Shown: positions 1 through 58,283 of the stretch, piece by piece
How the letters are laid out: every line of letters begins with the position of its first letter
How positions within the stretch are numbered: position 1 is the first letter of the stretch
Source of the DNA: Minisyncoccota bacterium
GTDB lineage: Bacteria; Patescibacteriota; Minisyncoccia; Phycocordibacterales; UBA9973
Assembly: GCA_041661005.1 (NCBI GenBank)
Contig: JBAZVG010000001.1
Coordinates: 543,515-607,514 of the forward strand
Direction: 5' to 3'
DNA: 64,000 nt
Translations under genes and position numbers: made by a program
Notes under the pieces: model-generated
What the model saw: the letters and a program-made list of their open reading frames with translations, nothing else
Databases searched by the model: none
What the model was told of the DNA's origin: nothing

Positions 1-368
1 GAAGAAAGCGAAATCCCACGGAAATCTTTCGTTCGAGGGAGGGCGACATTGATAAGCTTTTCCAGAAAAGCATACATCCTTTTACCCCGCAATGTCACGA
101 TGACTCCGATCGGATCGCCCTGCCTAGTCTTAAAAGACGCGACTGATTGCTTGGCGCCTCTAGTCACCGGCTTCTGGCCAGTTATCTTTGCTAAACGCAG
201 AGCAATAGCTTCATTTTTATTCTTATCTTTTTTCATAGCTGTCCCTGTGCCCACATTCAGCACGATTTTTTGCATTTTTGGCGCAGCTATAGCGCTCTTG
301 TAATGAAAAGTTGTTTTCATTTTATCAAACACTTCTATTTCTTTTTCTTTAACAGTTAAATGTTTCAT
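1..368 (-). CDS. rplE: 50S ribosomal protein L5, N-terminal part (gene continues past window start)
   Basis: Minus-strand translation from ATG at 366-368 gives MKHLTVKEKEIEVFDKMKTTF...KIVLNVGTG...ITGQKPVTRGAKQSVASFKTRQGDPIGVIVTLRGKRMYAFLEKLINVALPR, typical L5. It follows rplX as in the spc operon. No stop inside the window. Confidence 0.8.
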   Translation of the reverse strand, partial: MKHLTVKEKEIEVFDKMKTTFHYKSAIAAPKMQKIVLNVGTGTAMKKDKNKNEAIALRLAKITGQKPVTRGAKQSVASFKTRQGDPIGVIVTLRGKRMYAFLEKLINVALPRTKDFRGISLS

Positions 369-375
369 TTGGTTT

Positions 376-594
376 TTAATCTAATTTTTTAACGTTCGAG
401 GCATGGATCGGCATTTCGATACTTTTCATGCTTCCTTTTTCGCCAGACTTTCTCGGACGCTGGTGTTTCTTCATCATATTCGCGCCTTCGACAATGACCT
501 TGTTCTCATTCACTAAAACTCGGACAATTTTTCCTTTTTTGCCTTTATCCTTGCCTGTTATTATTGTTACACTGTCTCCTTTCTTGATTTTCAT
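376..594 (-). CDS. rplX: 50S ribosomal protein L24
   Basis: 72-aa ORF MKIKKGDSVTIITGKDKGKKGKIVRV..., KOW-type L24 signature. Lies between rplN and rplE. Confidence 0.9.
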   Translation of the reverse strand: MKIKKGDSVTIITGKDKGKKGKIVRVLVNENKVIVEGANMMKKHQRPRKSGEKGSMKSIEMPIHASNVKKLD

Positions 595-603
595 ATTGTG
601 TTG

Positions 604-975
604 TTATATTACCTCTTGCGCTAATGAAATTATTTTCTGAAATCCTTTTTCGGCTAGCTCTCTCGGAATCGGACCGAATACGCGACCAGCTTTTGGATCC
701 AGCTTGCCTTTCTCGAGAAGCACGACAGCATTATCATCAAAACGAATATAAGATCCGTCACGCCTTCTGAAAGCATTTCTGGTGCGCACGATGACTGCTT
801 GATGCACATCTTTCTTTTTGACCCCCTTTCTAGGACTCGCCACTTTGACGGTAATAATGACCTGCTCACCCAAAGTAGCGTATCTTTTTTTAGAGGAACC
901 TAAAACCTTAAACACCTTTCCTATGGTGCCTCCAGCATTGTCTGTTATTTTTACCCATGTTCCTGCTTGAATCAT
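604..975 (-). CDS. rplN: 50S ribosomal protein L14
   Basis: 123-aa ORF MIQAGTWVKITDNAGG...AVIVRT...IRFDDNAVVL, canonical L14. Confidence 0.95.
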   Translation of the reverse strand: MIQAGTWVKITDNAGGTIGKVFKVLGSSKKRYATLGEQVIITVKVASPRKGVKKKDVHQAVIVRTRNAFRRRDGSYIRFDDNAVVLLEKGKLDPKAGRVFGPIPRELAEKGFQKIISLAQEVI

Positions 976-979
976 ATAT

Positions 980-1267
980 TTATTTGCTTAAAACTTTAAA
1001 GTGTTTATCCTTTGAAATCGGTTTCGTTTCTACTATTTGCACGTTGTCTCCGATTTTATATTTATTTTCCTCATCATGCGCTTTGTATTTTTTGCTTACT
1101 TGGTAAAATTTGCCATACAAAGGATGCTTGATAAACCTGAAAACGTTGACAGTCACAGTCTTGTCCATTTTATCGGAAACAACCACACCTTTTAAGACGT
1201 TGCCTGTCCTGAGCGAAGTCGAAGGACCTTTGTTTTCTTTATTTTCTTTTTGTATTTTCGTTTTCAT
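980..1267 (-). CDS. rpsQ: 30S ribosomal protein S17
   Basis: 95-aa ORF with the [14 protein letters not shown]...[16 protein letters not shown]17 pattern. Operon position fits. Confidence 0.9.
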
Positions 1268-1282
1268 TTTTTTTACAACTTT

Positions 1283-1474
1283 TTACTTTGCGCGATTTAT
1301 TTCCGTCAAAACCCGAGCGATCTCTTTCCTCAAAGTTGCAAACTCTTTCACATTCTTTGATTTTGACCCTTCAGCTTTGAACTTTATAAGTCTCGCATTT
1401 TCCTGTAAAACAGCAAGTTTCTTTTTCAGCTCGCTTTCTGTCATGTCTTTTAAATTATCTTTTTTCTTTGCCAT
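1283..1474 (-). CDS. rpmC: 50S ribosomal protein L29
   Basis: Internal start MAKKKDNLKDMTESELKKKLAVLQENARLIKFK... (L29 coiled-coil pattern). The ORF-track start at 1513 is probably upstream of the true start. Confidence 0.8.
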   Translation of the reverse strand: MAKKKDNLKDMTESELKKKLAVLQENARLIKFKAEGSKSKNVKEFATLRKEIARVLTEINRAK

Positions 1475-1487
1475 ATGATTATCTAAA

Positions 1488-1916
1488 TTATTGTTTGTGA
1501 ACTCTGGACACAATTCTTACTTTGATCGGAAGTTTACTACCAGCTTTTCTGAGAGCCTCCCCCGCAGTTTTTTCATCTACCCCGTCCACTTCAAAAATAA
1601 TACGGCCGGGAAAAACGTCAAAACAATATCCCTGTGGATCTCCTTTACCCTTTCCCATGCCCACTTCCGCCGCTTTGGCGGTATATGGACGATCCGGAAA
1701 AATGCGAATCCAATACTTTCCAGCCTTGGTGAGCGTTCTGGCTATCACCTTTCGAGCAGCTTCAATCTGGGCTGACCTCACACGCGCCTGAGATACAGAT
1801 TTGAGTCCATAAGAACCGAAAGACAGCTTGATGCCTCTAGTATCCGGCGATGTCGCCTTTGGATTACTTCGTCCCGTCTGCCATTTCCTAAATTTTACTT
1901 TTTTTGGAGTCAACAT
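1488..1916 (-). CDS. rplP: 50S ribosomal protein L16
   Basis: 142-aa ORF MLTPKKVKFRKWQTGR...GMGKGKG... canonical L16. Confidence 0.95.
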   Translation of the reverse strand: MLTPKKVKFRKWQTGRSNPKATSPDTRGIKLSFGSYGLKSVSQARVRSAQIEAARKVIARTLTKAGKYWIRIFPDRPYTAKAAEVGMGKGKGDPQGYCFDVFPGRIIFEVDGVDEKTAGEALRKAGSKLPIKVRIVSRVHKQ

Positions 1917-1920
1917 AAAA

Positions 1921-2625
1921 TTAATCAGACTTGGCTTTATTTTCTAATGATTCGTTCTTTTTTGTATTTTTGTCAGCAAAAATTTTACCGCGATAAATCC
2001 AGACTTTCACACCCACAACGCCATAAGACAAAGTCGCGCGCTCACGTTTGAAGTCTATGTCCGCGCGGAAAGTCTGAAGCGGGATACTTCCACGCTTGAG
2101 CTCTTCCGTGCGGGCAATGTCTGCCCCTCCTAACCTGCCTGATAACACCACTCTCGCTCCCTCTACCCCGCGCGCTGTCATAACCTTTTCGATAATTGTT
2201 TTGATGACCCGGCGATAAGGCATTCGTTTCTCCAATCCTTCAGCGATCATATATGCCACGATCGCGGCATCAGCTTCTGGATTTGTGACTTCAATGACTT
2301 CGAGTTTGAAATCTTCCGGTCGTGGAAGTTTCAGATTATCCATTTTTTTAAGAATTTCCTCTTTGAGCTTTGTCGCTCCTTCGCCATTTCTGCCGATAAT
2401 GAGACCGGGGCGAGAAGTTTTGATGATAAATCTGGTAGCTTTTCTGCTTCTCTCGATTTCAATTGTAGAAACATACATCCCACGCAATTTCTTTTCCAAA
2501 TATTGGCGCACGAGCACATCTCCTTTCAAATAAGAGACATACTTTTTCGGATCGGCAAACCAGCGACTTTTCCAGTCTCTGAGCATGATCAATCTATGTG
2601 CGTATGGATGAACTATTTTTGACAT
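1921..2625 (-). CDS. rpsC: 30S ribosomal protein S3
   Basis: 234-aa ORF with KH domain and S3 C-terminal domain (MSKIVHPYAHRLIMLRDWKSRWFA...). Confidence 0.95.
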   Translation of the reverse strand: MSKIVHPYAHRLIMLRDWKSRWFADPKKYVSYLKGDVLVRQYLEKKLRGMYVSTIEIERSRKATRFIIKTSRPGLIIGRNGEGATKLKEEILKKMDNLKLPRPEDFKLEVIEVTNPEADAAIVAYMIAEGLEKRMPYRRVIKTIIEKVMTARGVEGARVVLSGRLGGADIARTEELKRGSIPLQTFRADIDFKRERATLSYGVVGVKVWIYRGKIFADKNTKKNESLENKAKSD

Positions 2626-2629
2626 ATTA

Positions 2630-3013
2630 TTATTTCGTAACTTTTTTTGTTTTAATCGCCTTTGTCTTCTTTGTTTTTGTTACTTGCGCCACTTTCTCAC
2701 CCAAAAGGAGGCTGAGATGACTGGTGCGTTTGTTTATCCTGTGTCCTGTGCCCATGGCAGCCGGCATCATTCTTTTCATTGTTATACCTTTGTCTACTCG
2801 CAATTCTTTAACAAATAAATTTTCTGCGTCTATTCCCATAGACTTTGCATTCGCAACAGCAGAAAGTAAAAGCTTTTTTATCGGCAAGCCTGCTCGCTTT
2901 GCCAAAAAATCAAGTTCAGCTATGGCTTCATTCACACTCTTTCCCTTTACCAGTCCTGCAACTAAGCGAACTTTTCTCGGAGCCTGTCTGTAATTTTTTA
3001 AAAAAGCTTTCAT
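2630..3013 (-). CDS. rplV: 50S ribosomal protein L22
   Basis: 127-aa ORF MKAFLKNYRQAPRKVRLVAGLVKGKSVNEAIAELDF... L22 pattern. Lys-rich C-terminal tail. Confidence 0.9.
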   Translation of the reverse strand: MKAFLKNYRQAPRKVRLVAGLVKGKSVNEAIAELDFLAKRAGLPIKKLLLSAVANAKSMGIDAENLFVKELRVDKGITMKRMMPAAMGTGHRINKRTSHLSLLLGEKVAQVTKTKKTKAIKTKKVTK

Positions 3014-3030
3014 GTTTATCTTATTTTTTA

Positions 3031-3384
3031 TTATTTCTTAGCCCCCTTTGCGTCGAGAGCGGCGGCAGTCGCTCCTTTTGCCGCATTTATTTCAGCTTCC
3101 TGTTTCTTTTGTTCAAGTTCTTTCTGCATCTTTCCGCCATGCTTTGTGAATTTCTTTGTTGGAGAAAATTCTCCCAATCTATGACCCACCATGTCTTCGG
3201 TGACCAGGACATCCACATGCACTTTGCCATTGTAAACGCCAAAAGTGAAACCAAGCATCTCGGGAGAAATGACGCAAGCCCTCTTCCATGTCTTGATGGA
3301 AGGAGTATTGAGCGGATTTTTGCCGGCAATCTTTTTTAAGAGCCTTTCATCCACGTATATTCCTTTTTTGATTGATCTTGTCAT
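3031..3384 (-). CDS. rpsS: 30S ribosomal protein S19 (with Lys/Ala-rich C-terminal extension)
   Basis: Start at internal [19 protein letters not shown]...[18 protein letters not shown] (S19 core), followed by a ~30-aa K/A-rich tail. The upstream in-frame extension in the ORF track overlaps a structured leader and is unlikely to be coding. Confidence 0.9.
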
Positions 3385-3390
3385 GTGTTT

Positions 3391-3486
3391 ATTCCCCTCT
3401 TGAGGGGTGGCTCGCTTGCGAGACGGGGTGGAAAAATACATCCACCTCCCTCCGACCAAAGTCGGAGTACTCCTCAAGAGGAGAAT
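3391..3486. repeat. Structured intergenic repeat, family A copy 1 (in the rpsS 5' leader)
   Basis: ATTCCCCTCTTGAGGGGTGG...GGTGGA-N8-TCCACCTCCC...CCGAC-caaa-GTCGG...ACTCCTCAAGAGGAGAAT. This is about 85% identical to 37083-37169. The third hairpin differs by compensatory changes (CCGAC/GTCGG here versus CCC/GGG in copy 2). The ends are near-inverted repeats. Confidence 0.7.
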
Positions 3487-3529
3487 TAATTAAAAATAGC
3501 TCGTAACGAGCTTGGTTTTATATTAGCAA

Positions 3530-3557
3530 ATATGAATAAAATGTCAACAAACAAACA
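3530..3557 (-). promoter_or_regulatory. Candidate sigma70-type promoter driving the rpsS leader (internal promoter in the S10 operon)
   Basis: Minus strand reads TTGACA-16 nt-TAATAT: -35 at 3552-3557 and -10 at 3530-3535. It lies directly after the U-tract of the upstream terminator. Confidence 0.5.
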
Positions 3558-3590
3558 AAAATGGGGGCATCAGACTGCCGATGCCCCCAC
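3545..3590 (-). terminator. Intrinsic terminator
   Basis: Minus strand reads GGGGGCATCGGCAGTCTGATGCCCCC followed by ATTTTTGTTTGTTTG (GC stem 3563-3588 plus U-tract). Confidence 0.65.
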
Positions 3591-3601
3591 ATGCCTCATT
3601 G

Positions 3602-3664
3602 CTACCGCCGCCGATTTGCGAACTTCTTCAAGTGTCTTGGAGAGGGTTTTTTCTTCTCTGCCAT
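3602..3664 (-). CDS. Candidate 20-codon basic mini-ORF (MAEKKKPSPRHLKKFANRRR) with a canonical Shine-Dalgarno
   Basis: GGAAGGGAGGTGAGAACC precedes the ATG (GGAGGTG 6 nt upstream). TAG stop is followed directly by the 3563-3588 terminator. It lies inside the rplB-rpsS insert and was not in the ORF track because it is under 60 aa. Confidence 0.35.
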   Translation of the reverse strand: MAEKKKPSPRHLKKFANRRR

Positions 3665-3797
3665 GGTTCTCACCTCCCTTCCGTGATCAAAAGACCACAT
3701 TGTTCGTTGTTCACTTATATTTATACAACTTACAAAAAATAACACAATACAAAAAAGTGGATAAACACAACCTCCTGAATCCCCCTTGTCAGGGAGA

Positions 3798-3830
3798 CAC
3801 CAAAAACCCTCCCTTGATAAGGGGAGGGTT
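3798..3830 (-). terminator. Intrinsic terminator directly after the rplB stop
   Basis: Minus strand reads CCCTCCCCTTATCAAGGGAGGG followed by TTTTTG. Confidence 0.6.
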
Positions 3831-3847
3831 AGGGAGGGGTTGAATTT

Positions 3848-4687
3848 TTATTTTGATTTCCCAGTCTTCCTGCGAGAAACAATGAAAACATTTGAGTACC
3901 TCTTTGGACCACGAGTTTTTCTGCCACCTGTGACTTTACCCCACATGGTTTTCGGACGTTTGGTTCCTCTGCCCTGTCTACCTTCTCCACCTCCATATGG
4001 ATGGTCTACTGGGTTCATAGCAGTACCACGAACTGTTGGTCTGATTCCTTTCCAGCGACTTCGTCCAGCTTTTCCATAATTTTCAAGATGGTGCTCATCG
4101 TTTGAGACAGTTCCGACACATGCCCAACAATTTTCATTTATTTTTCTGACTTCCGTCGAAGGCATTTTGATGTTTGTGTATCCGTCGGCATTTGCCACCA
4201 CTTGCGCAAAAATCCCCGCCGAACGTCCGATCTTCGATCCACCATTTGGTTGTATTTCCACATTGTAAACGAAAGTTCCAACTGGAATATTTTTTAGCGG
4301 AAGTCTATTGGCAACGGTAAAAGGCGCCTTTTCTGACACGACAAAGGTATCGCCGGGCTTCACGGACTTTGGTAAAATAACATATCTTTTTTCTCCGTCT
4401 TTATAAACAGCGAGTCCGATAAAAGCCGAGCGGTTTGGATCATATTCAACGGATTTTATTGTAGCAGGAATTTCTTTTTTGTTATATAAAAAATCTACAT
4501 CTCGGTAGAGACGTTTGTGTCCGGCGCCTTTATGTCGCACAGTTATCCGCCCGGCGCTGTTTCTGCCCACCCTGCGATAAAAACCATGAGTCAAAGATTT
4601 AGTCGGCTCTGTGTGAGTCAAAAGCTCCCTATAAGGGATATGGGTCATTTGTCTTCTAGATTTGCTTGTGGGTTTGTATGTTTTCAT
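3848..4687 (-). CDS. rplB: 50S ribosomal protein L2
   Basis: 279-aa ORF with the conserved L2 C-terminal motif GTAMNPVDHPYGGGEGR. Confidence 0.95.
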   Translation of the reverse strand: MKTYKPTSKSRRQMTHIPYRELLTHTEPTKSLTHGFYRRVGRNSAGRITVRHKGAGHKRLYRDVDFLYNKKEIPATIKSVEYDPNRSAFIGLAVYKDGEKRYVILPKSVKPGDTFVVSEKAPFTVANRLPLKNIPVGTFVYNVEIQPNGGSKIGRSAGIFAQVVANADGYTNIKMPSTEVRKINENCWACVGTVSNDEHHLENYGKAGRSRWKGIRPTVRGTAMNPVDHPYGGGEGRQGRGTKRPKTMWGKVTGGRKTRGPKRYSNVFIVSRRKTGKSK

Positions 4688-4727
4688 CTGATTTACTTTA
4701 TGAACTTGATAACTTTCTACTTTATGA

Positions 4728-4997
4728 CTAAACGAACTCTATTTTATCTTCCTTTTTCAAATACACAAGAGCTTTTTTACCTCCGCCTTTCGTGCCCATG
4801 CGTCCTTTCGACATGATATTTTTCTTTGGCACGCTTAAAATATTTATTCGGATAGGTTTTACTTTATAAAGCGCAAAAATAGCCTTATTTATTTCTGTCT
4901 TGTTGGCATTATTTGAAACATCGAAAGTGTAGACATTTTGCTCTTGCGCCAATGATGCTTTTTCAGTAATTCTTGGGTTTTTAATTATGTTTGTCAT
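4728..4997 (-). CDS. rplW: 50S ribosomal protein L23
   Basis: 89-aa ORF in the conserved L4-L23-L2 position. ...NKAIFALYKVKPIRINIL... is L23-like. Confidence 0.85.
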   Translation of the reverse strand: MTNIIKNPRITEKASLAQEQNVYTFDVSNNANKTEINKAIFALYKVKPIRINILSVPKKNIMSKGRMGTKGGGKKALVYLKKEDKIEFV

Positions 4998-5002
4998 AAA
5001 AA

Positions 5003-5662
5003 TTATCCTCGAGACTCCAAGAATTTTACACTCTCGACCGGATTTTCTATTAAAAGATACTTGTAATTTAAAACATCAAACGGATTTAAATTTTTCAAAA
5101 AAGCTATCTCGAGTTGTGGTATATTTCTAAAACTTTTCTCTATCTTTTCATCACGTCCGAAAATCGTAGTCAAAACGCGAGGCTTCTTCGAAGCATCAAT
5201 GATTTTCCAACCTGAAACTTTTACCAAATTTTGCACTATCTTCACAGCATCTTTCGTTTTGATAGAAGACGTAGATAGTGAATCAACAAAAAGTATTTCT
5301 CCATCTTTTAATTTTTTTGAAAGAACGGAAAAGAGAGCTTGCGCGCGCATTTTCTTTGAGATTTTTCTCTTGTAATTCTTCTCAGCAAGAGGTCCGTGAG
5401 TCACACCTCCACCAACCCATATAGGGCTTCGAGATGATCCATGTCTAGCCTGTCCGGTTCCTTTTTGCTTCCAAGGCTTTCTACCTCCACCCCGAACTTC
5501 TCCTCGGTCTTTGGTATCGGCAGTTCCAGCTCTTTTGTTGCTCCTCATGCTCTGCACAACTTGGTGTACCAAATCACTGCGCCACTTAGCAGCAAAAACT
5601 TTTTCCGGAAGATCTATCTTCCCTGCCTCCGCCCCTTTTTGGTTGTATATTTTTGCTTCCAT
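5003..5662 (-). CDS. rplD: 50S ribosomal protein L4
   Basis: 219-aa ORF with ...RGGGRKPWKQKGTGQARHGS... L4 signature. Confidence 0.9.
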   Translation of the reverse strand: MEAKIYNQKGAEAGKIDLPEKVFAAKWRSDLVHQVVQSMRSNKRAGTADTKDRGEVRGGGRKPWKQKGTGQARHGSSRSPIWVGGGVTHGPLAEKNYKRKISKKMRAQALFSVLSKKLKDGEILFVDSLSTSSIKTKDAVKIVQNLVKVSGWKIIDASKKPRVLTTIFGRDEKIEKSFRNIPQLEIAFLKNLNPFDVLNYKYLLIENPVESVKFLESRG

Positions 5663-5673
5663 TTGCTTTTGCT

Positions 5674-6288
5674 TTATCTGCTGATTATTTCCACTAAACT
5701 CCCGCGTTTGCCGGCTACTGCTCCTTTGACAAGCATTATGTTATTTTCCTTATCAACAGAAACAACTTTTAAATTCTTTTGAGTAATGCGATCTCCACCC
5801 ATTCTGCCCGCCATTCTCATGCCCTTGGGGACGTGAGTTCGCAGTCCGCCACCGATACTTCCAGGCTCTCTTTCGGAATGTTTCTGACCGTGTGTTCGAG
5901 GACCGCCAGAAAAGCCATGGCGTTTCACAACACCCTGAAAGCCCTTGCCTTTTGACACGCTTGAAATCTGCAACTTATCATCCGGAGAAAAAACTGAAAC
6001 ATCAATACTAGCGCCTTCTTTAACATCTATCGTATCAGTGGGCTTGAGTCTAAATTCTTTAAGATATTTATAAAAAGCTCCTTTCATAGCCCCAGCCCTA
6101 CCCTTTGTAATTCTTTCTTTCTTTTGTGTTCCAAAACCAACTTGAACAGCATTGTAGCCATCCTTATCTTTTGAAAACACTCTCGTCACCGTGATCGGTC
6201 CAGCGGAGAGTATGGTAACTGGAACAACAACCCCCTCAGGTGAGAAGTATTCCGTCATGTTTTCTTTTGTTGCTAAAATGAATTTCAT
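5674..6288 (-). CDS. rplC: 50S ribosomal protein L3
   Basis: 204-aa ORF with ...KGKGFQGVVKRHGFSGGPRTHGQ... L3 signature. Confidence 0.95.
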   Translation of the reverse strand: MKFILATKENMTEYFSPEGVVVPVTILSAGPITVTRVFSKDKDGYNAVQVGFGTQKKERITKGRAGAMKGAFYKYLKEFRLKPTDTIDVKEGASIDVSVFSPDDKLQISSVSKGKGFQGVVKRHGFSGGPRTHGQKHSEREPGSIGGGLRTHVPKGMRMAGRMGGDRITQKNLKVVSVDKENNIMLVKGAVAGKRGSLVEIISR

Positions 6289-6300
6289 GGTTTTTTGTAA

Positions 6301-6335
6301 TAGCGCTTTAGGCGCTCAGAGCGCCTAAAGCGCTA
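6301..6335. promoter_or_regulatory. Perfect 16-bp inverted repeat (stem-loop) between rpsJ and rplC
   Basis: TAGCGCTTTAGGCGCT-cag-AGCGCCTAAAGCGCTA. GC-rich in an AT-rich genome. Possible attenuator, processing site or protein-binding site. Confidence 0.5.
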
Positions 6336-6346
6336 TCTCCTCGGTT

Positions 6347-6784
6347 CTACAACATTTTCACATCAATATCTACACCAGAAGGTAATGACAAATTGGTAAG
6401 GGCCTCAATGGTCTTTGCGTTTGGATTTATAATATCAATCAATCTTTTGTGCACTCGAATCTCAAACTGTTCCCTTGTATTTTTATAAATAAAAGGAGAA
6501 CGATTGACTGTATATTTCTTGATCTCAGTAGGTAGTGGCACAGGACCGACTATCGTCGCATCATGACGAACTGCAGTATCTATAATCTGCTTGACTGAGC
6601 TGTCGAGTATTTTACTCTCATAAGCTCGCACTCGTATGCGAAGTATAACCTCGCCATCTTCCTTTTTTTTCTTTAAAGAAACTTTAGAGACTTTTCCCGC
6701 TTTCTGCGGAACCCCAGAAGAGGTGGTGGTTTTTGCGTCTTTCACCATTTTAGGTTTTTTTATTTTTGTCTCTGTTGTTGTCAT
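6347..6784 (-). CDS. rpsJ: 30S ribosomal protein S10 with ~40-aa Lys-rich N-terminal extension
   Basis: C-terminal ~100 aa are canonical S10 (ILRIRVRAYES...GPVPLPT...EIRVHKRLIDI). The N-terminus is K/T-rich, and the start may be an internal Met. Confidence 0.88.
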   Translation of the reverse strand: MTTTETKIKKPKMVKDAKTTTSSGVPQKAGKVSKVSLKKKKEDGEVILRIRVRAYESKILDSSVKQIIDTAVRHDATIVGPVPLPTEIKKYTVNRSPFIYKNTREQFEIRVHKRLIDIINPNAKTIEALTNLSLPSGVDIDVKML

Positions 6785-6823
6785 GGTACTTTTACTTTAT
6801 AACTTTGTGAACCTTTGAAGCTC

Positions 6824-8017
6824 CTAGCCTAATATCTTAGTAACAACTCCGGCTCCGACAGTCTTGCCTCCTTCACGAATAGCGAATCTTTGAGATTCTT
6901 CGAGCGCAACTGGGGTAACCAATTTAACTGTAATCTTTACTGTGTCTCCCGGCATGACCATCTCTGTTCCTTCAGCTAGAGCGACATCACCAGTAACATC
7001 TGTGGTTCGAATGTAGAATTGAGGTTTGTAACCCTTAAAGAAAGGAGTATGACGTCCACCTTCCTCTTTCTTCAAAACGTAAATTTCAGCAGTGAAATTG
7101 TCATGTGGAGTAGTAGTGCCCGGCTTACAAAGAACTTGTCCGCGAGTGATATCTTCTTTCTTAAGACCACGAAGAAGAATACCAGCATTGTCGCCAGCCA
7201 TACCTTCTTTTAGGCTCTTGTTAAACATTTCTATACCTGTAACTGTTGATTTTTGAGTAGGCTTGATTCCAACTATTTCGACATCTTCATCGACTTTAAC
7301 GACACCTCTTTCAATCTTTCCTGTAACGACAGTTCCACGTCCTTCGATTGAGAATATGTCTTCAACTGGCATGAGAAAAGGCTTTGCTAGATCTCGAACT
7401 GGAATCGGAATATAAGTATCAAGAGCGTTTGCAAGCTCGAGAATTTTCTTTGCCCATTCATCATCAACTGACTTTGACTCGAGACCTTTTAGAGCTGAAC
7501 CACGGATAACCGGAGCTCCTGCGCCGTCAAACCCTTGCTTGGTTAGAAGCTCACGAATTTCTTCCTCGACTAGATCGATCATTTCCTTATCATCAACCAT
7601 ATCGCACTTGTTTAAGAATACGATAATCTTTGGAACACCAACTTGCTTTGCTAGGAGAACGTGTTCACGAGTCTGAGGCATGGCACCGTCAGTAGCGGCA
7701 ACCACCAAAATGGCGCCATCCATTTGCGCTGCGCCTGTGATCATGTTTTTAATATAATCGGCGTGTCCCGGAGCATCGATGTGCGCGTAGTGGCGAGCAT
7801 CCGTAGCATACTCATTGTGAGAAATGTTAATAGTGATTCCACGAGCTTTTTCCTCGGGAGCATTGTCGATCTGATCAACACCTCGAAGTCTGACTTGCTT
7901 TCCAGCCAAGTTTAAAACATGCAAGATCGCAGCGGTTAAAGTGGTCTTACCATGGTCAACGTGACCAATAGTTCCGACATTTACGTGCGGTTTATCTCTT
8001 TTAAATTCTTCTGCCAT
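6824..8017 (-). CDS. tuf: Elongation factor Tu
   Basis: [31 protein letters not shown]... throughout. Likely start at the internal Met (8017) rather than the ORF-track start at 8038. Confidence 0.95.
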
Positions 8018-8282
8018 ATTTTTATTCTTACCCCGCAAGAGCGAGGAGACGTTACTAACTAAAACTCAACATACAGGAGCCAGTTGCTGGGGCTTAGTTA
8101 CTAACTTGCCCCGCTATAAGCGTGGGCGATAATTAAACTTATAATAATGTGCCTCAAGAGCGTTTCCGCTATTAGGAGGCAAATTGGTAAATCAAAACAA
8201 AAACTGCAAAAAGTGCAGTTATTACCATACTAACAAATTAAAAAGTAATGTCAATATTATTTATACAAGTATAAAAACAAAA

Positions 8283-8325
8283 GAAAAAACTTCAAGGCCC
8301 TCCTCCTCGAAGTTTTTTTCTTTTG
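8283..8325. terminator. Bidirectional intrinsic terminator
   Basis: AAAAAACTTC...GAAGTTTTTTTCTTTTGTTTTTT: a hairpin flanked by A-tract and T-tract. Confidence 0.55.
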
Positions 8326-8337
8326 TTTTTTATAAGA

Positions 8338-8787
8338 TTAATTAACTTTTATTGGCTCACTAGATAGACTACATCCTGATTTAAAAACATAGCTATTTGA
8401 ACATGTAACTTGAATATACAAATCAGCTGAATTTTCTCCACTTAAAGGAACCCATGATTCTTGCTTATCGTTTGGAGTATTTGTCTCAATTGTTCTTACA
8501 AGCACAAATTGTCTTGGAGAATCTGAAACCTTTCTAATTAAATTTATATTAACTCCGGCATCAACTGGATAATTAGAAGTTTGCCAGTTAACAGTCTTTG
8601 TCCCAGCAAGTACAGCTACTGCCGGTGAAGTGACTAAAGTAACCGACTGGGTAGAAATTGTCGCTGGAGCAACTTCTTCAGGAGTTTTTTCAGTCTTGGA
8701 TGAAGTAAGAACCCAAAAAATAATACCTAAAACAATGATTACAAAAAGCGCGATATATTTATTTTTATTCATACTTTTATTATACAA
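8338..8787 (-). CDS. Hypothetical membrane-anchored or secreted protein
   Basis: 149-aa ORF with an N-terminal hydrophobic segment (IALFVIIVLGIIFWVL). No recognised domain. Confidence 0.5.
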   Translation of the reverse strand: MYNKSMNKNKYIALFVIIVLGIIFWVLTSSKTEKTPEEVAPATISTQSVTLVTSPAVAVLAGTKTVNWQTSNYPVDAGVNINLIRKVSDSPRQFVLVRTIETNTPNDKQESWVPLSGENSADLYIQVTCSNSYVFKSGCSLSSEPIKVN

Positions 8788-8885
8788 AGTTAATTAATAA
8801 ATTACCAACTCACTACCCCATAGTATATCACACTTATCATAAAAAGCAAGCTCCCCGTCCCCGAATTCTGACTCCAAGCGCAATG

Positions 8886-8912
8886 TATAGTTAAAAAAAG
8901 CCCCACAGACTG
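8886..8912 (-). terminator. Intrinsic terminator after pyrF
   Basis: Minus strand reads CCCCAGTCTGTGGGGC followed by TTTTTTT. Confidence 0.6.
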
Positions 8913-8914
8913 GG

Positions 8915-9733
8915 TTATTTATATTTATTTATCTCTTCCCAAAGTTTTCTTGCCTCATCTTTTGGATTTTCAGCAAAAATTATACTGCGAGCAGAATTTA
9001 TGATAAGTCCCAAACCCTCACTATTTAATCCAGCTTCAATAGCAGATCTTAAATCTCCCCCTTGAGCCCCGATTCCCGGGACAAGAAAAGTCATATCTGG
9101 AGCGAGATTGCGAATCTTTTTCATCTCTTCCGGATACGTCGCTCCCACTACCAGCATGCAATTTTTATTTTTATTCCATTCTTCCGAAACTTTCTCTGCG
9201 ACAATTTGCCAAAGCGGAACACTTTTGTTGGACACCGGGTGTCCAACATTTAGATCTTGAAACTCGGGAGCGCCCGGATTGGAAGTTCTACACAAAATAA
9301 TCGAACATTTGTCTTTTCTATCTAAAAACGGCTGTAAGGCCTCCTTCCCTAAATATGGATGCAAAGTGACAGCGTCAAAACCAAGCCAATCAAAAATCGA
9401 AGCTACATATCCGTTATTTGTATTTCCAATATCTGCCCGTTTGGCGTCTAAAATAGTGAAAATATCGGGATGATTGTCGATCAAATAATCCATTGTCATT
9501 TTCAATTCTTTTATCCCCTTGTCCCCACGAGCTTCATAAAAAGCGCTGTTTGGTTTATACGCAGATGCATATTCATGCGTTTCATTTATAATCCATTTAT
9601 TAAATTCAAACTGTGGGAATTCTAATTTCTTAAATTTTTCAGGAATTTTAGCAAAATCCGCATCCAACCCAACACAAAGAAGTGAATCAATTTTCTTGGC
9701 TCTTTCGTTGTATTTGTTTATTATCTGACTCAT
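8915..9733 (-). CDS. pyrF: Orotidine 5'-phosphate decarboxylase (long, type-2 form)
   Basis: 272 aa with LCVGLDAD...ILDAKRADIGNT... (the catalytic Asp-x-Lys-x-x-Asp motif of OMP decarboxylase). Last gene of the pyr operon. Confidence 0.85.
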   Translation of the reverse strand: MSQIINKYNERAKKIDSLLCVGLDADFAKIPEKFKKLEFPQFEFNKWIINETHEYASAYKPNSAFYEARGDKGIKELKMTMDYLIDNHPDIFTILDAKRADIGNTNNGYVASIFDWLGFDAVTLHPYLGKEALQPFLDRKDKCSIILCRTSNPGAPEFQDLNVGHPVSNKSVPLWQIVAEKVSEEWNKNKNCMLVVGATYPEEMKKIRNLAPDMTFLVPGIGAQGGDLRSAIEAGLNSEGLGLIINSARSIIFAENPKDEARKLWEEINKYK

Positions 9734-23642: not shown

Positions 23643-25028
23643 CTACACTGGCACGAAAGTCAGCGCTGTGCCAGCTTTGCCACTTCGGCCGGTTCGGCCG
23701 ATACGATGCACATAGGTGTCGTAAGTTTGAGGCACATCATAGTTTATAACGTGTGTAACATCTGGAATATCAAGCCCCCTAGCGGCAACATCAGTCGCAA
23801 TCAAAATATTAATTTTATCTTGTTTAAATGAATCCAAAATGCGAATACGTTCACGACTTCTTTTGTCACCATGAATTCCGCCCACTTTGAATCCCATTGT
23901 GTGTAATTCTTTGGCGAGCGTATCCACGCTATGTTTCATCTCGCGGAAAATTAAAACCTTTTGGGTCGGACCGCTTGCCCCGCCGTGGCGTGGGTCTTTT
24001 TTCAAGACTTCATGCAACTTTTCTAACTTTTCTTCTTTGGTACGCACGCGAATTACGTCTTGATCAATATTTTTCGCCGTCTCGCCAGAGACGACAGAAA
24101 TAAAAGCTGGATCTTTCAAATATTGCTCAGTCATTTTTCTAATTTCTGGAGAAAGAGTCGCTGAAAAGAAAAGGGTTTGGCGTTCCTTTGCTGTCTTCCC
24201 TATTATAAACACCATATCATCTCGGAATCCCATATCAAGCATTCTGTCAGCTTCATCTAGCACGACACTGTGGCAAGTCGACAAGTCTAAAACTTTTTTC
24301 TCAATCAAGTCTCGCAAACGTCCGGGTGTGCCGATGACAAACGAAACTCCGAGCTTTATTTCCCTAATTTGTTTCATTATCGGCAATCCACCCACACATG
24401 CGACGGAAAACATCCCAAATCCAAAAGCTAGAGTTTTAAAATCACTTTCTATCTGAAGCGCGAGTTCACGAGTCGGCGCCATTATTAAAACTGTCTCTCT
24501 TTTATTTTGTCCTTTTGTTTTAGAAATTTTCTCAATTAAGGGAAGCAAGAAAGCTGCAGTTTTTCCTGTGCCAGTATTTGCCATACCAAAGACATCTTTG
24601 CCGGCTAAAATCGTCGGTATTGCTTGATCTTGAATTGGCCTAGGATTTTCAAAACCAGCTCCTTTTATATTTTTATGAAGTTGTGGATTAAAAGGAAAAT
24701 CGAGAAATGTGTGTCGGGAAACATAAGGTTTTTCCTCCACTCGAACACCTTTTTTAATGAAACGCGAAAAATCTATCCGTTCACCACGAGATCTCTTATT
24801 GCTTGAACGTCTAAAATTGCCCCCGCCTGCAACGCTATGCGTAGCATTGCGGGCAGGTCCAAAACGAGGACGAGAATTATTAAACCTGCCTCGACTTGCG
24901 CTGGACAAGGCGGGTTTTCCACTGCTTGAGTTGTATTTTGCTTTGTGAGCAAAAGTATGACTGCTAAATTTTTTCGGGTTAGCCGAATGGCTCGCCCGTA
25001 GGGCTATGCCCGAGGGATGTTTATACAT
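23643..25028 (-). CDS. DEAD-box ATP-dependent RNA helicase with ~110-aa R/S/G-rich N-terminal region
   Basis: Q motif (FENPRPIQ), motif I (GMANTGTGKT), DEAD (VLDEADRM), SAT, HRIGRTGR. The first ~20 codons overlap a family D mini-palindrome, so the true start is uncertain. Confidence 0.85.
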   Translation of the reverse strand: MYKHPSGIALRASHSANPKKFSSHTFAHKAKYNSSSGKPALSSASRGRFNNSRPRFGPARNATHSVAGGGNFRRSSNKRSRGERIDFSRFIKKGVRVEEKPYVSRHTFLDFPFNPQLHKNIKGAGFENPRPIQDQAIPTILAGKDVFGMANTGTGKTAAFLLPLIEKISKTKGQNKRETVLIMAPTRELALQIESDFKTLAFGFGMFSVACVGGLPIMKQIREIKLGVSFVIGTPGRLRDLIEKKVLDLSTCHSVVLDEADRMLDMGFRDDMVFIIGKTAKERQTLFFSATLSPEIRKMTEQYLKDPAFISVVSGETAKNIDQDVIRVRTKEEKLEKLHEVLKKDPRHGGASGPTQKVLIFREMKHSVDTLAKELHTMGFKVGGIHGDKRSRERIRILDSFKQDKINILIATDVAARGLDIPDVTHVINYDVPQTYDTYVHRIGRTGRSGKAGTALTFVPV

Positions 25029-27388: not shown

Positions 27389-27455
27389 GGAGGGGTTTTG
27401 AGCGCGACGGCGCGAAAACTTCAGGATTTTTTAAGCTTCAAAAAATCCGTACCGG
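27389..27455 (+). repeat. Structured repeat, family C copy b
   Basis: GGAGGGGTTTTGAG-CGCGACGGCGCG-AAAACTTCAGGATTTTTTAAGCTTCAAAAAATCCGTACCGG. Confidence 0.7.
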
Positions 27456-27482
27456 AAAAAGTTCATATTTTAAAAATTTTGT

Positions 27483-37082: not shown

Positions 37083-37169
37083 ATTTTAATAATTCCCCTC
37101 TTGAGGGGTGGCGTTTATGCCGGGGTGGATATAATTCGTCCACCTCCCCCCTAAAGGGTACTCCTCAAA
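37083..37169. repeat. Structured intergenic repeat, family A copy 2 (between rplJ and rplL)
   Basis: ATTCCCCTCTTGAGGGGTGG...GGTGGA-N8-TCCACCTCCCC-CCTAAAGGG-TACTCCTCAAAGAGGAGAAT. See copy 1 at 3391-3486. Confidence 0.7.
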
Positions 37170-37178
37170 GAGGAGAAT

Positions 37179-37693: not shown

Positions 37694-37787
37694 TGAAGGG
37701 GTTTCGAGGCTGTCGAGCCGAGAACTTCCCTTGGCCGTCCCGGCACGGGCGAGGCAGGATTTTTTAAGCTTAAAAAAATCCGTACCG
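37694..37787 (+). repeat. Structured repeat, family C copy c (with a 27-nt internal insertion)
   Basis: GAAGGGGTTTCGAG-GCTGTCGAGCC-GAGAACTTCC[insert CTTGGCCGTCCCGGCACGGGCGAGGC]AGGATTTTTTAAGCTTAAAAAAATCCGTACCG. Confidence 0.65.
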
Positions 37788-37799
37788 AAAAAAAATTGA

Positions 37800-40239: not shown

Positions 40240-41280
40240 CTAAATCAAATTAACTTCTGAGGTAAGTTCAAGACCAAATTTTTCTTTTACATCAACGATG
40301 ATTTTATTTGCCAGAGCCAACACTTCTTCTCCTTTTGCTTTACCATAATTTACCAAAACTAACGCTTGTTTTTCATGGACGCCAACATTTCCAAGCCTTT
40401 GTCCTTTCCACCCACATTGTTCGATCAACCATCCAGCTGGGATTTTGACAAGATTATCTTCTTCAAAATACGGCATTTCCGGATATGCTTTTTGCAGTTT
40501 TTTTAATTCCTCCGGTTGTACAAAAATATTTTTAAAAAAACTACCTGCGTTAGGAATGCTAACCGGATCTGGAAGTTTACTCCTGCGTATAGCAGAAACC
40601 GCATTGCTTATATCCCTCGGCCGTAGCCCTACGGGCGAGTCCTTTAAACTTCTGACTTCAATTTTATTTTTCTCTAAATAATCCTGTAAAATTTTATAAG
40701 TTACATTTTTATTTTCTTTTTTACTTAATCGAAGAGTTGTCGCGATAATAAAATATTTTTCCTTTAATTCATTTTTAAAAATACTATCTCGGTAGCCAAG
40801 TTTGCATTCTTCTTTGCTGAAAACCATCTTTTCTCCAGTAATAATATTAATCGTCTCGACATTTTCTAATACATTTTTGAGCTCGACTCCATACGCTCCG
40901 ATATTTTGCATCGGCGCTGCGCCGACTGTCCCCGGGATAAGCGCCAAATTCTCGATGCCCCACAAATCACGTTCCACTGCAAAAGTCACAAGATCGTGCC
41001 AAATCTCTCCGCCCATGGCGCGAACCATAACGGTTTCAGAATTTTCTGATAGAATCTCAATACCTTTCAATTTATTTAAAACAACTAAACCATCGAAATC
41101 TTTAGTAAACAAAACATTGCTCCCTCCGCCGAGAAATAATTTATTGCTGTTTTGAAACTCTTTCGTAGTCAAAAGTTCTTTTAAATCGGCCTCATTCGCG
41201 ATTTCTACAAAAAATTTAGCATTCACCGAAATGCTAAAAGTGTTTAACTTTGACAAATTGTAGTTGTGCTCTATTTTCAC
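40240..41280 (-). CDS. murB: UDP-N-acetylenolpyruvoylglucosamine reductase
   Basis: 346 aa with an FAD-binding PCMH domain (LFLGGGSNVLF) and the MurB C-terminal KLPDP...GSFFKN motif. Contains an in-frame copy of the family D mini-palindrome at 40614-40639 encoding DSPVGLRPRD. Confidence 0.85.
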   Translation of the reverse strand: MKIEHNYNLSKLNTFSISVNAKFFVEIANEADLKELLTTKEFQNSNKLFLGGGSNVLFTKDFDGLVVLNKLKGIEILSENSETVMVRAMGGEIWHDLVTFAVERDLWGIENLALIPGTVGAAPMQNIGAYGVELKNVLENVETINIITGEKMVFSKEECKLGYRDSIFKNELKEKYFIIATTLRLSKKENKNVTYKILQDYLEKNKIEVRSLKDSPVGLRPRDISNAVSAIRRSKLPDPVSIPNAGSFFKNIFVQPEELKKLQKAYPEMPYFEEDNLVKIPAGWLIEQCGWKGQRLGNVGVHEKQALVLVNYGKAKGEEVLALANKIIVDVKEKFGLELTSEVNLI

Positions 41281-57926: not shown

Positions 57927-58283
57927 TTTAACGTCTGATTAAGCCTTATTCCTCAACAACCAGTTCCAACAGCGTACCCCTCGGTCGTAGCCCTACGGGT
58001 GAGACAAACTGCCTTCGCCTGCCAAAAGGTTTGTAAAGACCACATATATTGTTACACTGTAAAAAAAATAGACAAAAGATATCTAATCTGTTATACTAGC
58101 GGAGTTGAATTTTAGAAATTTATTTTAATTCGGTTTAGGGGAATATTCCATATATTATGAAGTGTTTAAAGCAAAATTTTCCACGCCACGGCGAGGTAAA
58201 TAAAATCTTTTTTAACGTACGCTTTGGGCTAGGGACAAATCCATAAATATAGGGACATGTTCTTGTAAGCTGACATAAAGCTT

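Follow-up and report, generated by a model that had tools for sequence, protein, structure and literature searches.

The rplB-rpsS spacer of a Candidatus Nomurabacteria S10 cluster as a probable patchwork of predicted promoter, variable cargo and a dispersed palindromic repeat

In the 64,000-nt stretch of DNA analyzed here (the window), the S10 cluster of ribosomal protein genes is split by a 463-nt gap between rplB, encoding L2, and rpsS, encoding S19; the remaining junctions of the tuf-S10 cluster measure 4 to 58 nt each. The host is a low-GC (0.39) Candidatus Nomurabacteria (Parcubacteria, candidate phyla radiation, CPR), and the L2 of the window is 92 to 94% identical to Nomurabacteria L2 proteins that carry PF00181 and PF03947. 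An earlier note on this stretch, made from the letters alone, had described the gap as one non-coding insert of about 460 nt, GC-richer than its flanks. The gap and all of the features that the note listed are present (Table 1). However, the GC content of the gap (0.443) is close to that of rplB (0.437) and rpsS (0.441), the composition is a mosaic of GC-rich (0.51 to 0.55) and AT-rich (0.26 to 0.30) blocks, and the gap is non-coding solely if the 20-codon mini-open reading frame (mini-ORF) within it goes untranslated. Terminator-like sites are enriched over positions 1 to 9000 (20 observed versus 7.9 ± 3.1 expected). Rfam covariance models run over positions 3200 to 4000 returned nothing at the gathering score and only chance-level matches at E ≤ 10, and none of the known ribosomal protein leader families of Rfam matched the gap. 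The explanation that we favor, with good confidence in it as a whole, is that the spacer is not one regulatory insert but a patchwork of at least three independent pieces at a junction that varies lineage-wide.

Table 1. Features of the rplB-rpsS junction in the window and related loci in the compared genome stretches (L numbers)
Feature	Position or stretch	Strand	Details
tuf	6824-8038	minus	upstream of rpsJ, rplC, rplD, rplW, rplB, in that order
rplB (L2)	3848-4687	minus	last gene of upstream tuf-rpsJ-rplC-rplD-rplW-rplB unit; ORF and homology
rplB-rpsS gap	3385-3847		463 nt, rplB stop to rpsS ATG (3384-3382)
Terminator-like hairpin	3798-3830	minus	AACCCTCCCC-loop-GGGAGGGTT plus T-run, directly 3' of rplB stop
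Second GC hairpin	3780-3797	minus	UCUCCCU-GACA-AGGGGGA; -12.7 kcal/mol, z = -1.5
AT-rich promoter-like head	3707-3755	minus	TTGTGT 3747-3742, 16 nt, TATAAA 3725-3720, then AAGTGAACAA
Shine-Dalgarno sequence	3671-3678	minus	GGGAGGTG, 6 nt upstream of mini-ORF ATG
20-codon basic mini-ORF	3602-3664	minus	MAEKKKPSPRHLKKFANRRR; ATG at 3664, TAG 3604-3602
Strong intrinsic terminator (predicted)	3548-3590	minus	13-bp stem 3590-3561, U-tract 3560-3548; abuts -35 hexamer
Sigma-70-type promoter of rpsS (predicted)	3520-3547	minus	TTGACA 3547-3542, 16 nt, TG-n-TAATAT 3525-3520; TG 3528-3527
Hairpin plus U-tract	3492-3513	minus	AGCUCG-UUA-CGAGCU; palindrome 3512-3498; at predicted rpsS mRNA 5' end
Family A copy 1	3391-3486	minus	96 nt, rpsS 5' untranslated region, ends 6 nt before rpsS ATG
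rpsS (S19)	3031-3384	minus	first gene of downstream unit; then rplV, rpsC, rplP onward
Family A copy 2	37092-37178	minus	1 nt after rplJ stop to about 30 nt before rplL ATG
HicB-like plus HicA cassettes at rplB-rpsS	L001-L004, L128, L129, L132, L134
NUDIX gene at rplB-rpsS	L005, L130, L131	opposite
Diacylglycerol kinase (DAGK) at rplB-rpsS	L140, L141
HIT, resolvase and large serine recombinase at rplB-rpsS	L135-L137
66-aa ORF at rplB-rpsS	L142
Small basic-ORF cassettes at rplB-rpsS	window, L006/L133, L126, L127, L138
Family A copies in frame	L021, L053, L063; L025, L026; L030, L077; L066; L093, L091, L099		KsgA; PurD; PheT; Tgt; last three without gene name
DUF559 gene abutting module	L115, L096, L100, L105, L034, L106		Saccharibacteria; Limisphaerales; Cloacimonadota; Ca. 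Brocadia; unclassified; Nitrospirota (pseudogene)
DUF559 gene bracketed by inverted modules	L115 3347-3844; L144 1514-2032; L147, L096, L100, L105, L034		at least six phyla

The piece of the gap that is shared most widely is a promoter sequence upstream of rpsS. It agrees with the sigma-70 consensus at 10 of 12 positions, carries an additional TG, and has a 16-nt spacing; a 6-bp palindromic hairpin (-6.3 kcal/mol; z = -3.3) with a T-tract follows. Both had been noticed before at slightly different positions, the promoter at 3530-3557 (off by about 10 nt) and the hairpin at 3501-3518. We compared the junction among contigs encoding the closest L2 proteins and among matches from a metagenome scan for the promoter sequence. 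In 11 distinct relatives, including the distant L138, L140, and L142, the block directly 5' of rpsS consists of TTGAC(A/T), 16 to 17 nt including TTTG, and TA.TAT, continuing after about 8 nt with AGCTC-loop-G.GCT and a T-run; the columns TTGAC, TTTG, TA.TAT, and AGCTC...G.GCT are invariant, whereas the DNA 5' of the -35 hexamer is unrelated. The pattern occurs once in the window, and all metagenome matches to the promoter sequence (9/9) lie at rplB-rpsS junctions. In L005, L130, and L135 to L137, rplB and rpsS are separated by an antisense NUDIX gene or an insert with a recombinase, so that a downstream promoter is required. Since antisense or multi-kilobase cargo blocks an upstream promoter, the internal promoter should be functional in those genomes, and the same sequence is present in the window. 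Near-invariance of the -35, the extended -10, and the 5' hairpin next to differing upstream DNA suggests that rpsS and the genes downstream very probably have their own promoter, as the earlier note had proposed for rpsS-rplV-rpsC.

Transcription is predicted to start near position 3513, about 7 nt after the -10, so that the mRNA would open with the conserved hairpin. Expression from rpsS onward would thus be driven by a strong sigma-70-type promoter whose transcript begins with a small conserved hairpin and a U-tract. 5'-Terminal stem-loops protect mRNAs, and by analogy the hairpin is most likely a stabilizer of the mRNA 5' end; an attenuator (hairpin plus U-tract) and an operator (perfect inverted repeat) are possible roles as well. 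A hairpin and U-tract early in a ribosomal protein operon transcript recall the L4-controlled leader of the S10 operon in Escherichia coli. There, however, rpsJ through rpsQ form one unit in which rplB and rpsS are adjacent, whereas a control point here would lie mid-cluster, with no known regulator. A promoter of the same type as that of rpsS (TTGACA-16-TAGTAT with TG; 8227-8254, minus strand) lies upstream of tuf and is likely the start of the upstream transcription unit.

That upstream unit of the S10 cluster would terminate in the hairpins after rplB. The first, a GC-rich 9-bp stem (3830-3805; -17.6 kcal/mol) with a U-tract, is the predicted terminator that had been noted behind the rplB stop. 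The second is not significant alone and is conserved in L130. Window positions 3898 to 3763 match L130 at 77.5%, the matching sequence there lying between convergent rplB and NUDIX genes. A remnant of an L130-type NUDIX gene was considered as the source of the gap and rejected, since similarity does not extend past the post-rplB hairpins.

Between these hairpins and the rpsS promoter lies what appears to be a self-contained cassette of promoter-like head, perfect Shine-Dalgarno (SD) sequence, ORF, and strong terminator. The head scores under the threshold of a consensus promoter scan; L127 matches it at 86% identity over 51 nt and L006/L133 at 78%, and there too it heads small basic ORFs. The SD, the basic 20-codon ORF, and the strong terminator past it had all been described before and were all located, the predicted terminator folding at -25.2 kcal/mol (z = -4.6; 0/200 shuffles equally stable). 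In the window and its relatives, the small-ORF cassettes contain Arg/Lys-rich ORFs of 20 to 48 codons and end in terminators, and SDs of the AAGGAGGTG type also precede the small ORFs of L006/L133, L126, and L127. The encoded peptides are mutually unrelated in sequence, yet all are basic. Searches of Pfam and NCBIfam with six of the mini-ORF peptides gave no Pfam match and one chance-level NCBIfam match, and no ortholog of the window mini-ORF was found among the relatives. An identity as small ribosomal proteins (bL37, bS22) was rejected, as the peptides are non-homologous among close relatives.

The lack of a homolog or family match, the extreme sequence turnover at the site between close relatives, and an ORF of merely 20 codons are what one would expect if the cassette were not a working gene at all, being instead a decaying cargo remnant or a small non-coding RNA with an incidental SD-like sequence. 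However, a perfect AAGGAGGTG is retained in five independent cassettes, with a properly spaced ATG in four (the ATG of the first ORF in L127 lies about 17 nt downstream of the SD), and a promoter-like head and strong terminator are kept in all of them, which is unexpected in decaying DNA. Moreover, the cassette RNA minus its terminator has no significant structure relative to shuffles (z = -1.7). We therefore regard a non-working gene as unlikely, if still deserving some weight.

A different use of the mini-ORF had been suggested by the earlier note, which called it a leader-peptide-like cistron. If the peptide controlled the terminator at 3590-3561, and hence expression from rpsS onward, the entire 460 nt would be one regulatory insert. 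The perfect SD-ATG spacing suits this idea, as does a stop codon only 11 nt from the terminator stem, where a terminating ribosome could disturb the hairpin. However, because a conserved strong promoter lies downstream of the terminator, rpsS needs no read-through. Relatives whose L2 is 92 to 94% identical carry HicAB, NUDIX, unrelated mini-ORFs, or nothing at this site. No alternative antiterminator pairing stands out in the cassette, and the mini-ORF contains no run of regulatory codons. With an unconserved ORF, an intervening promoter, and no alternative pairing, the cassette lacks the attributes of a leader-peptide attenuator, and control by a leader peptide is scarcely credible. Given its own terminator followed by the rpsS promoter, as well as its own promoter-like block and its replacement or absence in close relatives, the mini-ORF cassette is no leader for rpsS. 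In this genome the cargo would instead be a self-contained cassette whose terminator insulates the rpsS promoter.

The same junction is split in every lineage sampled at 85 to 94% L2 identity, and its content varies (Table 1). A comparison of this kind had been proposed as a check, and its outcome divides: the gap is lineage-wide with unconserved content, which goes against a single insert, and the promoter and hairpin block is conserved, which supports a separate promoter. The common order of parts runs from rplB through terminator 1, the cargo, and terminator 2 to the promoter, the hairpin, and rpsS; a GC hairpin, differing in sequence, lies 10 to 25 nt before the -35 in L006/L133, L126, L127, L130, L138, and L142, and the HicAB cassette of L001 has none there. 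HicAB cassettes are bracketed by direct repeats made of the last 40-odd bases of rplB and the promoter start (L001 4788-4875 and 5480-5565), and L003 has a tandem amplification of the unit (three to four repeats). These repeats look like the sign of recombination via the conserved flanks, as opposed to site-specific transposition. Natural competence is possible in CPR bacteria, and Saccharibacteria are transformable (PMC10633639); together with the signature of flank recombination, this makes cassette swapping through homologous recombination plausible. Between the rplB terminator and the rpsS promoter, the junction would act as a cargo bay that holds whatever accessory DNA has landed, and cassettes would probably be exchanged through homology arms formed by the promoter and the conserved 3' end of rplB. 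A HicAB-like pair was also observed between rplC and rplD in the Parcubacteria GWB1_41_5 lineage (L135-L137, ~828-1383), indicating that other junctions of the S10 cluster are occasionally invaded too.

CPR phylogenomics treats the 16-gene ribosomal block as invariant in its synteny, and here accessory genes (toxin-antitoxin, NUDIX, kinase, and recombinase) appear to have landed repeatedly at one of its junctions, with a dedicated internal promoter behind them. A reduced genome would thereby host accessory DNA within an essential cluster without breaking the cluster, and the junction marks a candidate natural neutral site for engineering these organisms.

The last piece of the gap is a structured element, termed family A, which was found next to the rpsS ATG (3486-3391) as had been described. 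Copy 1 folds at -55.2 kcal/mol (z = -7.35) into a closing stem, or terminal hairpins, with three inner hairpins (H1 to H3), and its terminal inverted repeats (TIRs), ATTCTCCTCTTGAGG...CCTCAAGAGGGGAAT, are complementary at 14 of 15 positions. Regex searches allowing mismatches found only two copies in the window. The arms of copy 2 are identical to those of copy 1, and its H1 and H3 are formed by other sequences. The same holds among 31 full-length CPR copies, in which both arms are near-invariant while H1 and H3 are built from 17 and 22 distinct sequences, respectively, that covary. MAFFT with RNAalifold recovered the closing stem (P1), H1, and H2 and misaligned the length-variable H3, which was judged by per-copy folding. 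Folding energies of the sense and antisense strands show no asymmetry (-45.3 versus -45.9 kcal/mol); since both strands fold equally, a DNA-level palindrome is favored over an RNA selected on one strand.

The right arm of family A is a 45-nt module, TCCACCCCGTC-hairpin-GCCACCCCTCAAGAGGGGAAT, also written TCCACCCCGTC-hairpin-CCACCCCTCAAGAGGGGAAT. In a scan of one genome per species, the 19-mer CCACCCCTCAAGAGGGGAA occurred in at least 119 genome stretches compared with about 4 expected by chance (our own estimate, collection size over 4^19). Common to all of the 19-mer matches listed is the consensus TCCACCCCG(T/G)C, a short covarying hairpin, and (G/T)CCACCCCTCAAGAGGGGAAT, and these matches span more than 10 phyla. 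Within the CPR they fall in Nomurabacteria, Paceibacteria, Saccharibacteria, and Gracilibacteria. Elsewhere they occur in metagenome-assembled genomes labelled Thermotogaceae (at least 10 loci) and Bacillota (at least 10 loci), in a complete Kapabacteria chromosome, in the isolate Parasediminibacterium JCM 36343, and in Ignavibacteria, Nitrospirota, Verrucomicrobiota, Planctomycetota, Cloacimonadota, Bdellovibrionota, and others. A module variant was also observed immediately 3' of rplB in L126.

A reading of family A as a regulatory structure specific to the rpsS leader is not supported; it behaves as a dispersed palindrome of mobile type that is also found inside coding regions. At rpsS itself, L130 and L131 carry family A at the same site with different inner hairpins; L001, L005, and L127 lack it; and L006/L128/L133 and L126 carry two unrelated TIR elements in its place. 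The rpsS 5' untranslated region is thus a landing strip for small mobile elements. [quoted passage not shown]

Eleven CPR copies lie within long ORFs, all in a single phase that yields the peptide (N/D)SPLEEYP(L/K)GGGG..TP..ATPQEGN. In all five proteins tested, the copy interrupts a Pfam domain: RrnaAD (KsgA), GARS_C (PurD), PheT, TGT, and FAD_binding_4. The insert, NSPLEEYPLGGGG..TP..ATPQEGN in KsgA, PurD, PheT, and Tgt, is 28 to 33 aa long, and identical intragenic sites are occupied in two to three genomes. With our A...T boundaries, intragenic length is 2 mod 3 in 10 of 11 copies, so that the insert is a multiple of three, whereas intergenic copies are 0, 1, or 2 mod 3; the exception, in L093, is 88 nt long and exits in a different frame. 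This preservation of frame suggests that the in-frame copies are translated. A protein-database search with the concatenated element-encoded peptide returned seven weak short ORFs, its word index missing long proteins through the 30-aa insert. Rickettsia-like frame-preserving palindromes in CPR housekeeping enzymes would affect gene calling, alignment trimming, and structure prediction. In L021, KsgA carries another module-derived insert near residue 60, STPLPQAGAPLKRG, which is shorter.

These intragenic copies bear on whether family A could be a functional cis-regulatory RNA of ribosomal protein operons, either a ribosomal protein binding site or an SD-sequestering switch, and not selfish DNA. 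Such a role would fit the position of both window copies in the sense strand of ribosomal protein operons, further copies upstream of rplJ (L014, L055, L086), after rplB (L109), and in the rpsS leader of L130/131, and a strong co-orientation with the downstream gene. GGAGGUG and GAGGAG are sequestered in hairpins, and GAGGGG lies 8 nt before the rpsS ATG. However, copies interrupt unrelated enzymes in frame and sit at numerous other intergenic places, and the rpsS leader of the closest relatives lacks the element; its antisense strand folds as well as its sense strand, no Rfam model matches it, and its module occurs in more than 10 phyla and flanks a nuclease gene. Insertion into single-stranded DNA at replication forks is known for IS200/IS605 elements, and an orientation bias is equally expected from such insertion. 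We consider a cis-regulatory RNA very unlikely, and family A at rpsS is most likely a tolerated passenger with nothing adaptive about it. Even so, initiation could be lowered or buffered by a structure of -55 kcal/mol that lies 6 nt upstream of the rpsS start codon.

The nuclease gene was identified by clustering all ORFs near the module. This yielded one recurrent neighbor, a PF04480 (DUF559) protein of 130 to 165 aa, and no transposase (DDE type included). The gene abuts the module in six loci, five assigned to different phyla and one unclassified, and the proteins are 48 to 59% identical to one another. In all loci inspected (7/7), inverted modules bracket the gene. Bracketing occurs in two arrangements, in one of which (L115, L096, L100, L105, L034) the gene sits at the position of the family A H2 loop; family A thus has the layout of the bracketed unit minus the gene. 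L100 and L096 also carry a variant arm that equals the left half of CPR family A. When the L115 protein was searched against a database, 383 homologs came back. Of the 120 independent homologs listed, 89 have a called N-terminus that translates the module at a fixed distance from the domain (NSPLEGW on the reverse strand; STP..HPSRGE, ATPQEGN, and PPLKRG in forward frames), and in 34 of 50 cases HPSRGE precedes an LPKN motif by exactly 12 residues. Among solved structures, the Neisseria gonorrhoeae endonuclease-like protein 3HRL is nearest (E = 1.6e-8). In L034, a 22-nt direct repeat, cccaagtttttggtgttggagt (~1-30 and ~600-640), flanks the unit of DUF559 gene plus module, and it may be a long target duplication or reflect insertion into a repeat.

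Family A would be best described as a non-autonomous palindromic mobile element of the kind represented by repetitive extragenic palindromic (REP) sequences, their inverted doublets (REPINs), and Rickettsia palindromic elements (RPEs), with the layout of a DUF559-module unit minus its gene. We further propose that family A and the 45-nt module may be the cis-acting ends of an undescribed selfish element whose enzyme is DUF559, a Vsr-like PD-(D/E)XK protein. This nuclease-based "REPtron," spread across more than 10 phyla, would be the missing enzyme system of CGTC-type REPs and would seed ORF-less copies into CPR operon spacers and in frame into essential enzymes. We hold the arguments for and against this proposal to be about evenly balanced. 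The literature searched contained nothing relevant on the module sequence itself and, where it mentions DUF559, no link to repeats; the flanking of a DUF559 gene by inverted modules points to a REPtron-like system of which no description was found. If the proposal is true, the widespread orphan domain PF04480 gains a role, and CGTC-type REPs gain a candidate mobilizing enzyme, a question left open in 2013.

The CGTC-tagged REP superfamily is the closest described system. It includes dRS3 of Neisseria and RPE-4 and RPE-6 of Rickettsia, is reported from Thermotogae, Bacteroidetes, and Chlorobi, and is stated to lack a dedicated transposase (Di Nocera et al. 2013; PMC3733652). The comparison was made at the level of the superfamily and not of its groups CGTC-1 to CGTC-4. 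On that basis, the inner right-arm hairpin has the form CGTC-stem-loop-stem-(G)CCA, which is the defining tag and tail of the superfamily. The unpaired tag (CGTC, or TGTC/CCTC) is seen in copy 1 as CCCCGTC-TCG-CAAG-CGA-GCCA and in copy 2 as a CGGC variant, and CCCCGTC occurs in most of 139 module instances; (G/T)CCA follows the hairpin in all copies, within the invariant CCACCCCTC. Head-to-head dimers, dispersed copies mostly between co-directional or convergent genes, occasional intragenic units, and occurrence of the module in Thermotogae, Bacteroidetes, and Chlorobi are further likenesses to what is described there. In contrast to the described 8- to 9-bp stems starting from A/T pairs with loops of 4 to 5 nt, H3 has stems of 3 to 7 bp and loops of 3 to 6 nt, and an AA..TT stem start appears in only some non-CPR module copies. 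The unit here also lies within a longer conserved shell, TCCACCC...CCCCTCAAGAGGGGAAT, which does not differ between phyla and is absent from the published description, and modules flank a DUF559 gene, whereas the superfamily is stated to lack a dedicated transposase (PMC3733652).

Other systems resemble family A in some respects. Like REPINs and their REP-associated tyrosine transposases (RAYTs), it is an inverted doublet of hairpin repeats of about 80 to 100 nt, with many ORF-less copies and a few that hold a small enzyme gene between inverted repeats. However, it has no GTAG tag, the sole recurrent neighbor is the PF04480 nuclease gene and not an IS200-like Y1 HUH transposase, and the 19-mer of the module is identical across phyla whereas REPIN families are lineage-specific. 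RPEs likewise enter housekeeping genes in frame and add a conserved peptide (PMC10969869; PMC3733652), a behavior found here in the relatives only, both window copies being intergenic; they differ in length (about 150 nt versus 80 to 98 nt), in sequence family, and in host, which here is Nomurabacteria, Paceibacteria, and Saccharibacteria (PMC10969869). Correia/NEMIS and other MITEs of 5' untranslated regions are also short TIR elements between promoter and start codon that enter the mRNA and can form a long hairpin (PMC10969869). Family A has MITE-like TIRs but differs in that neither a consistent target-site duplication nor a DDE transposase partner was found for it. Finally, the bracketed gene shares PF04480 with 3HRL and its fold group with Vsr and the Vsr-fold homing endonucleases (I-Bth0305I type), a group that includes a group I intron homing endonuclease (PMC3424549); the gene here has no intron or intein context and stands free between inverted repeats.

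Several points weigh against the explanation that we favor. Flanks of the 31 full CPR copies contain no consistent or clear target-site duplication, and no empty and filled pair with exact ends was found for family A. The case for mobilization by the DUF559 nuclease is one of association. No ortholog of the mini-ORF was found on which purifying selection could be assessed. Promoter activity, the transcription start, termination, and mini-ORF translation are all predictions from sequence. Across the 11 relatives the sequence of the leader hairpin is kept and compensatory changes are almost absent, a pattern in which structure and sequence-specific binding are indistinguishable. Copies of family A look over-represented beside translation genes (rpsS, rplB, rplJ, rplL, and possibly rpsG), and in about 17 of 19 intergenic cases (hand tally), the downstream gene is co-oriented, which could hint at function. 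Strand-biased insertion into DNA that is replicating or highly transcribed would fit both biases, leaving only slight room for an exapted RNA role.

Other palindromic repeats were observed alongside family A. A family of GC-rich REP-like palindromic hairpins (..CCTCGGCCGTAGCCCTACGGGCGAG..) is scattered through the AT-rich genome, with members in the window at 24986-25014, 37725-37753, 40611-40639, and 57975-58003. Two 39-nt hairpin repeats, 95% identical (CAGGATTTTTTAAGCTT.AAAAAATCCGTACCG.AAAAA), lie at 27422-27460 and 37755-37793, one of them just upstream of rplJ. Elsewhere in the CPR, intergenic mosaics of nested GC-rich palindrome types, resembling bacterial interspersed mosaic elements, occur in L069 (2950-3420), L126 (3034-3110), and L082 (6497-6649).

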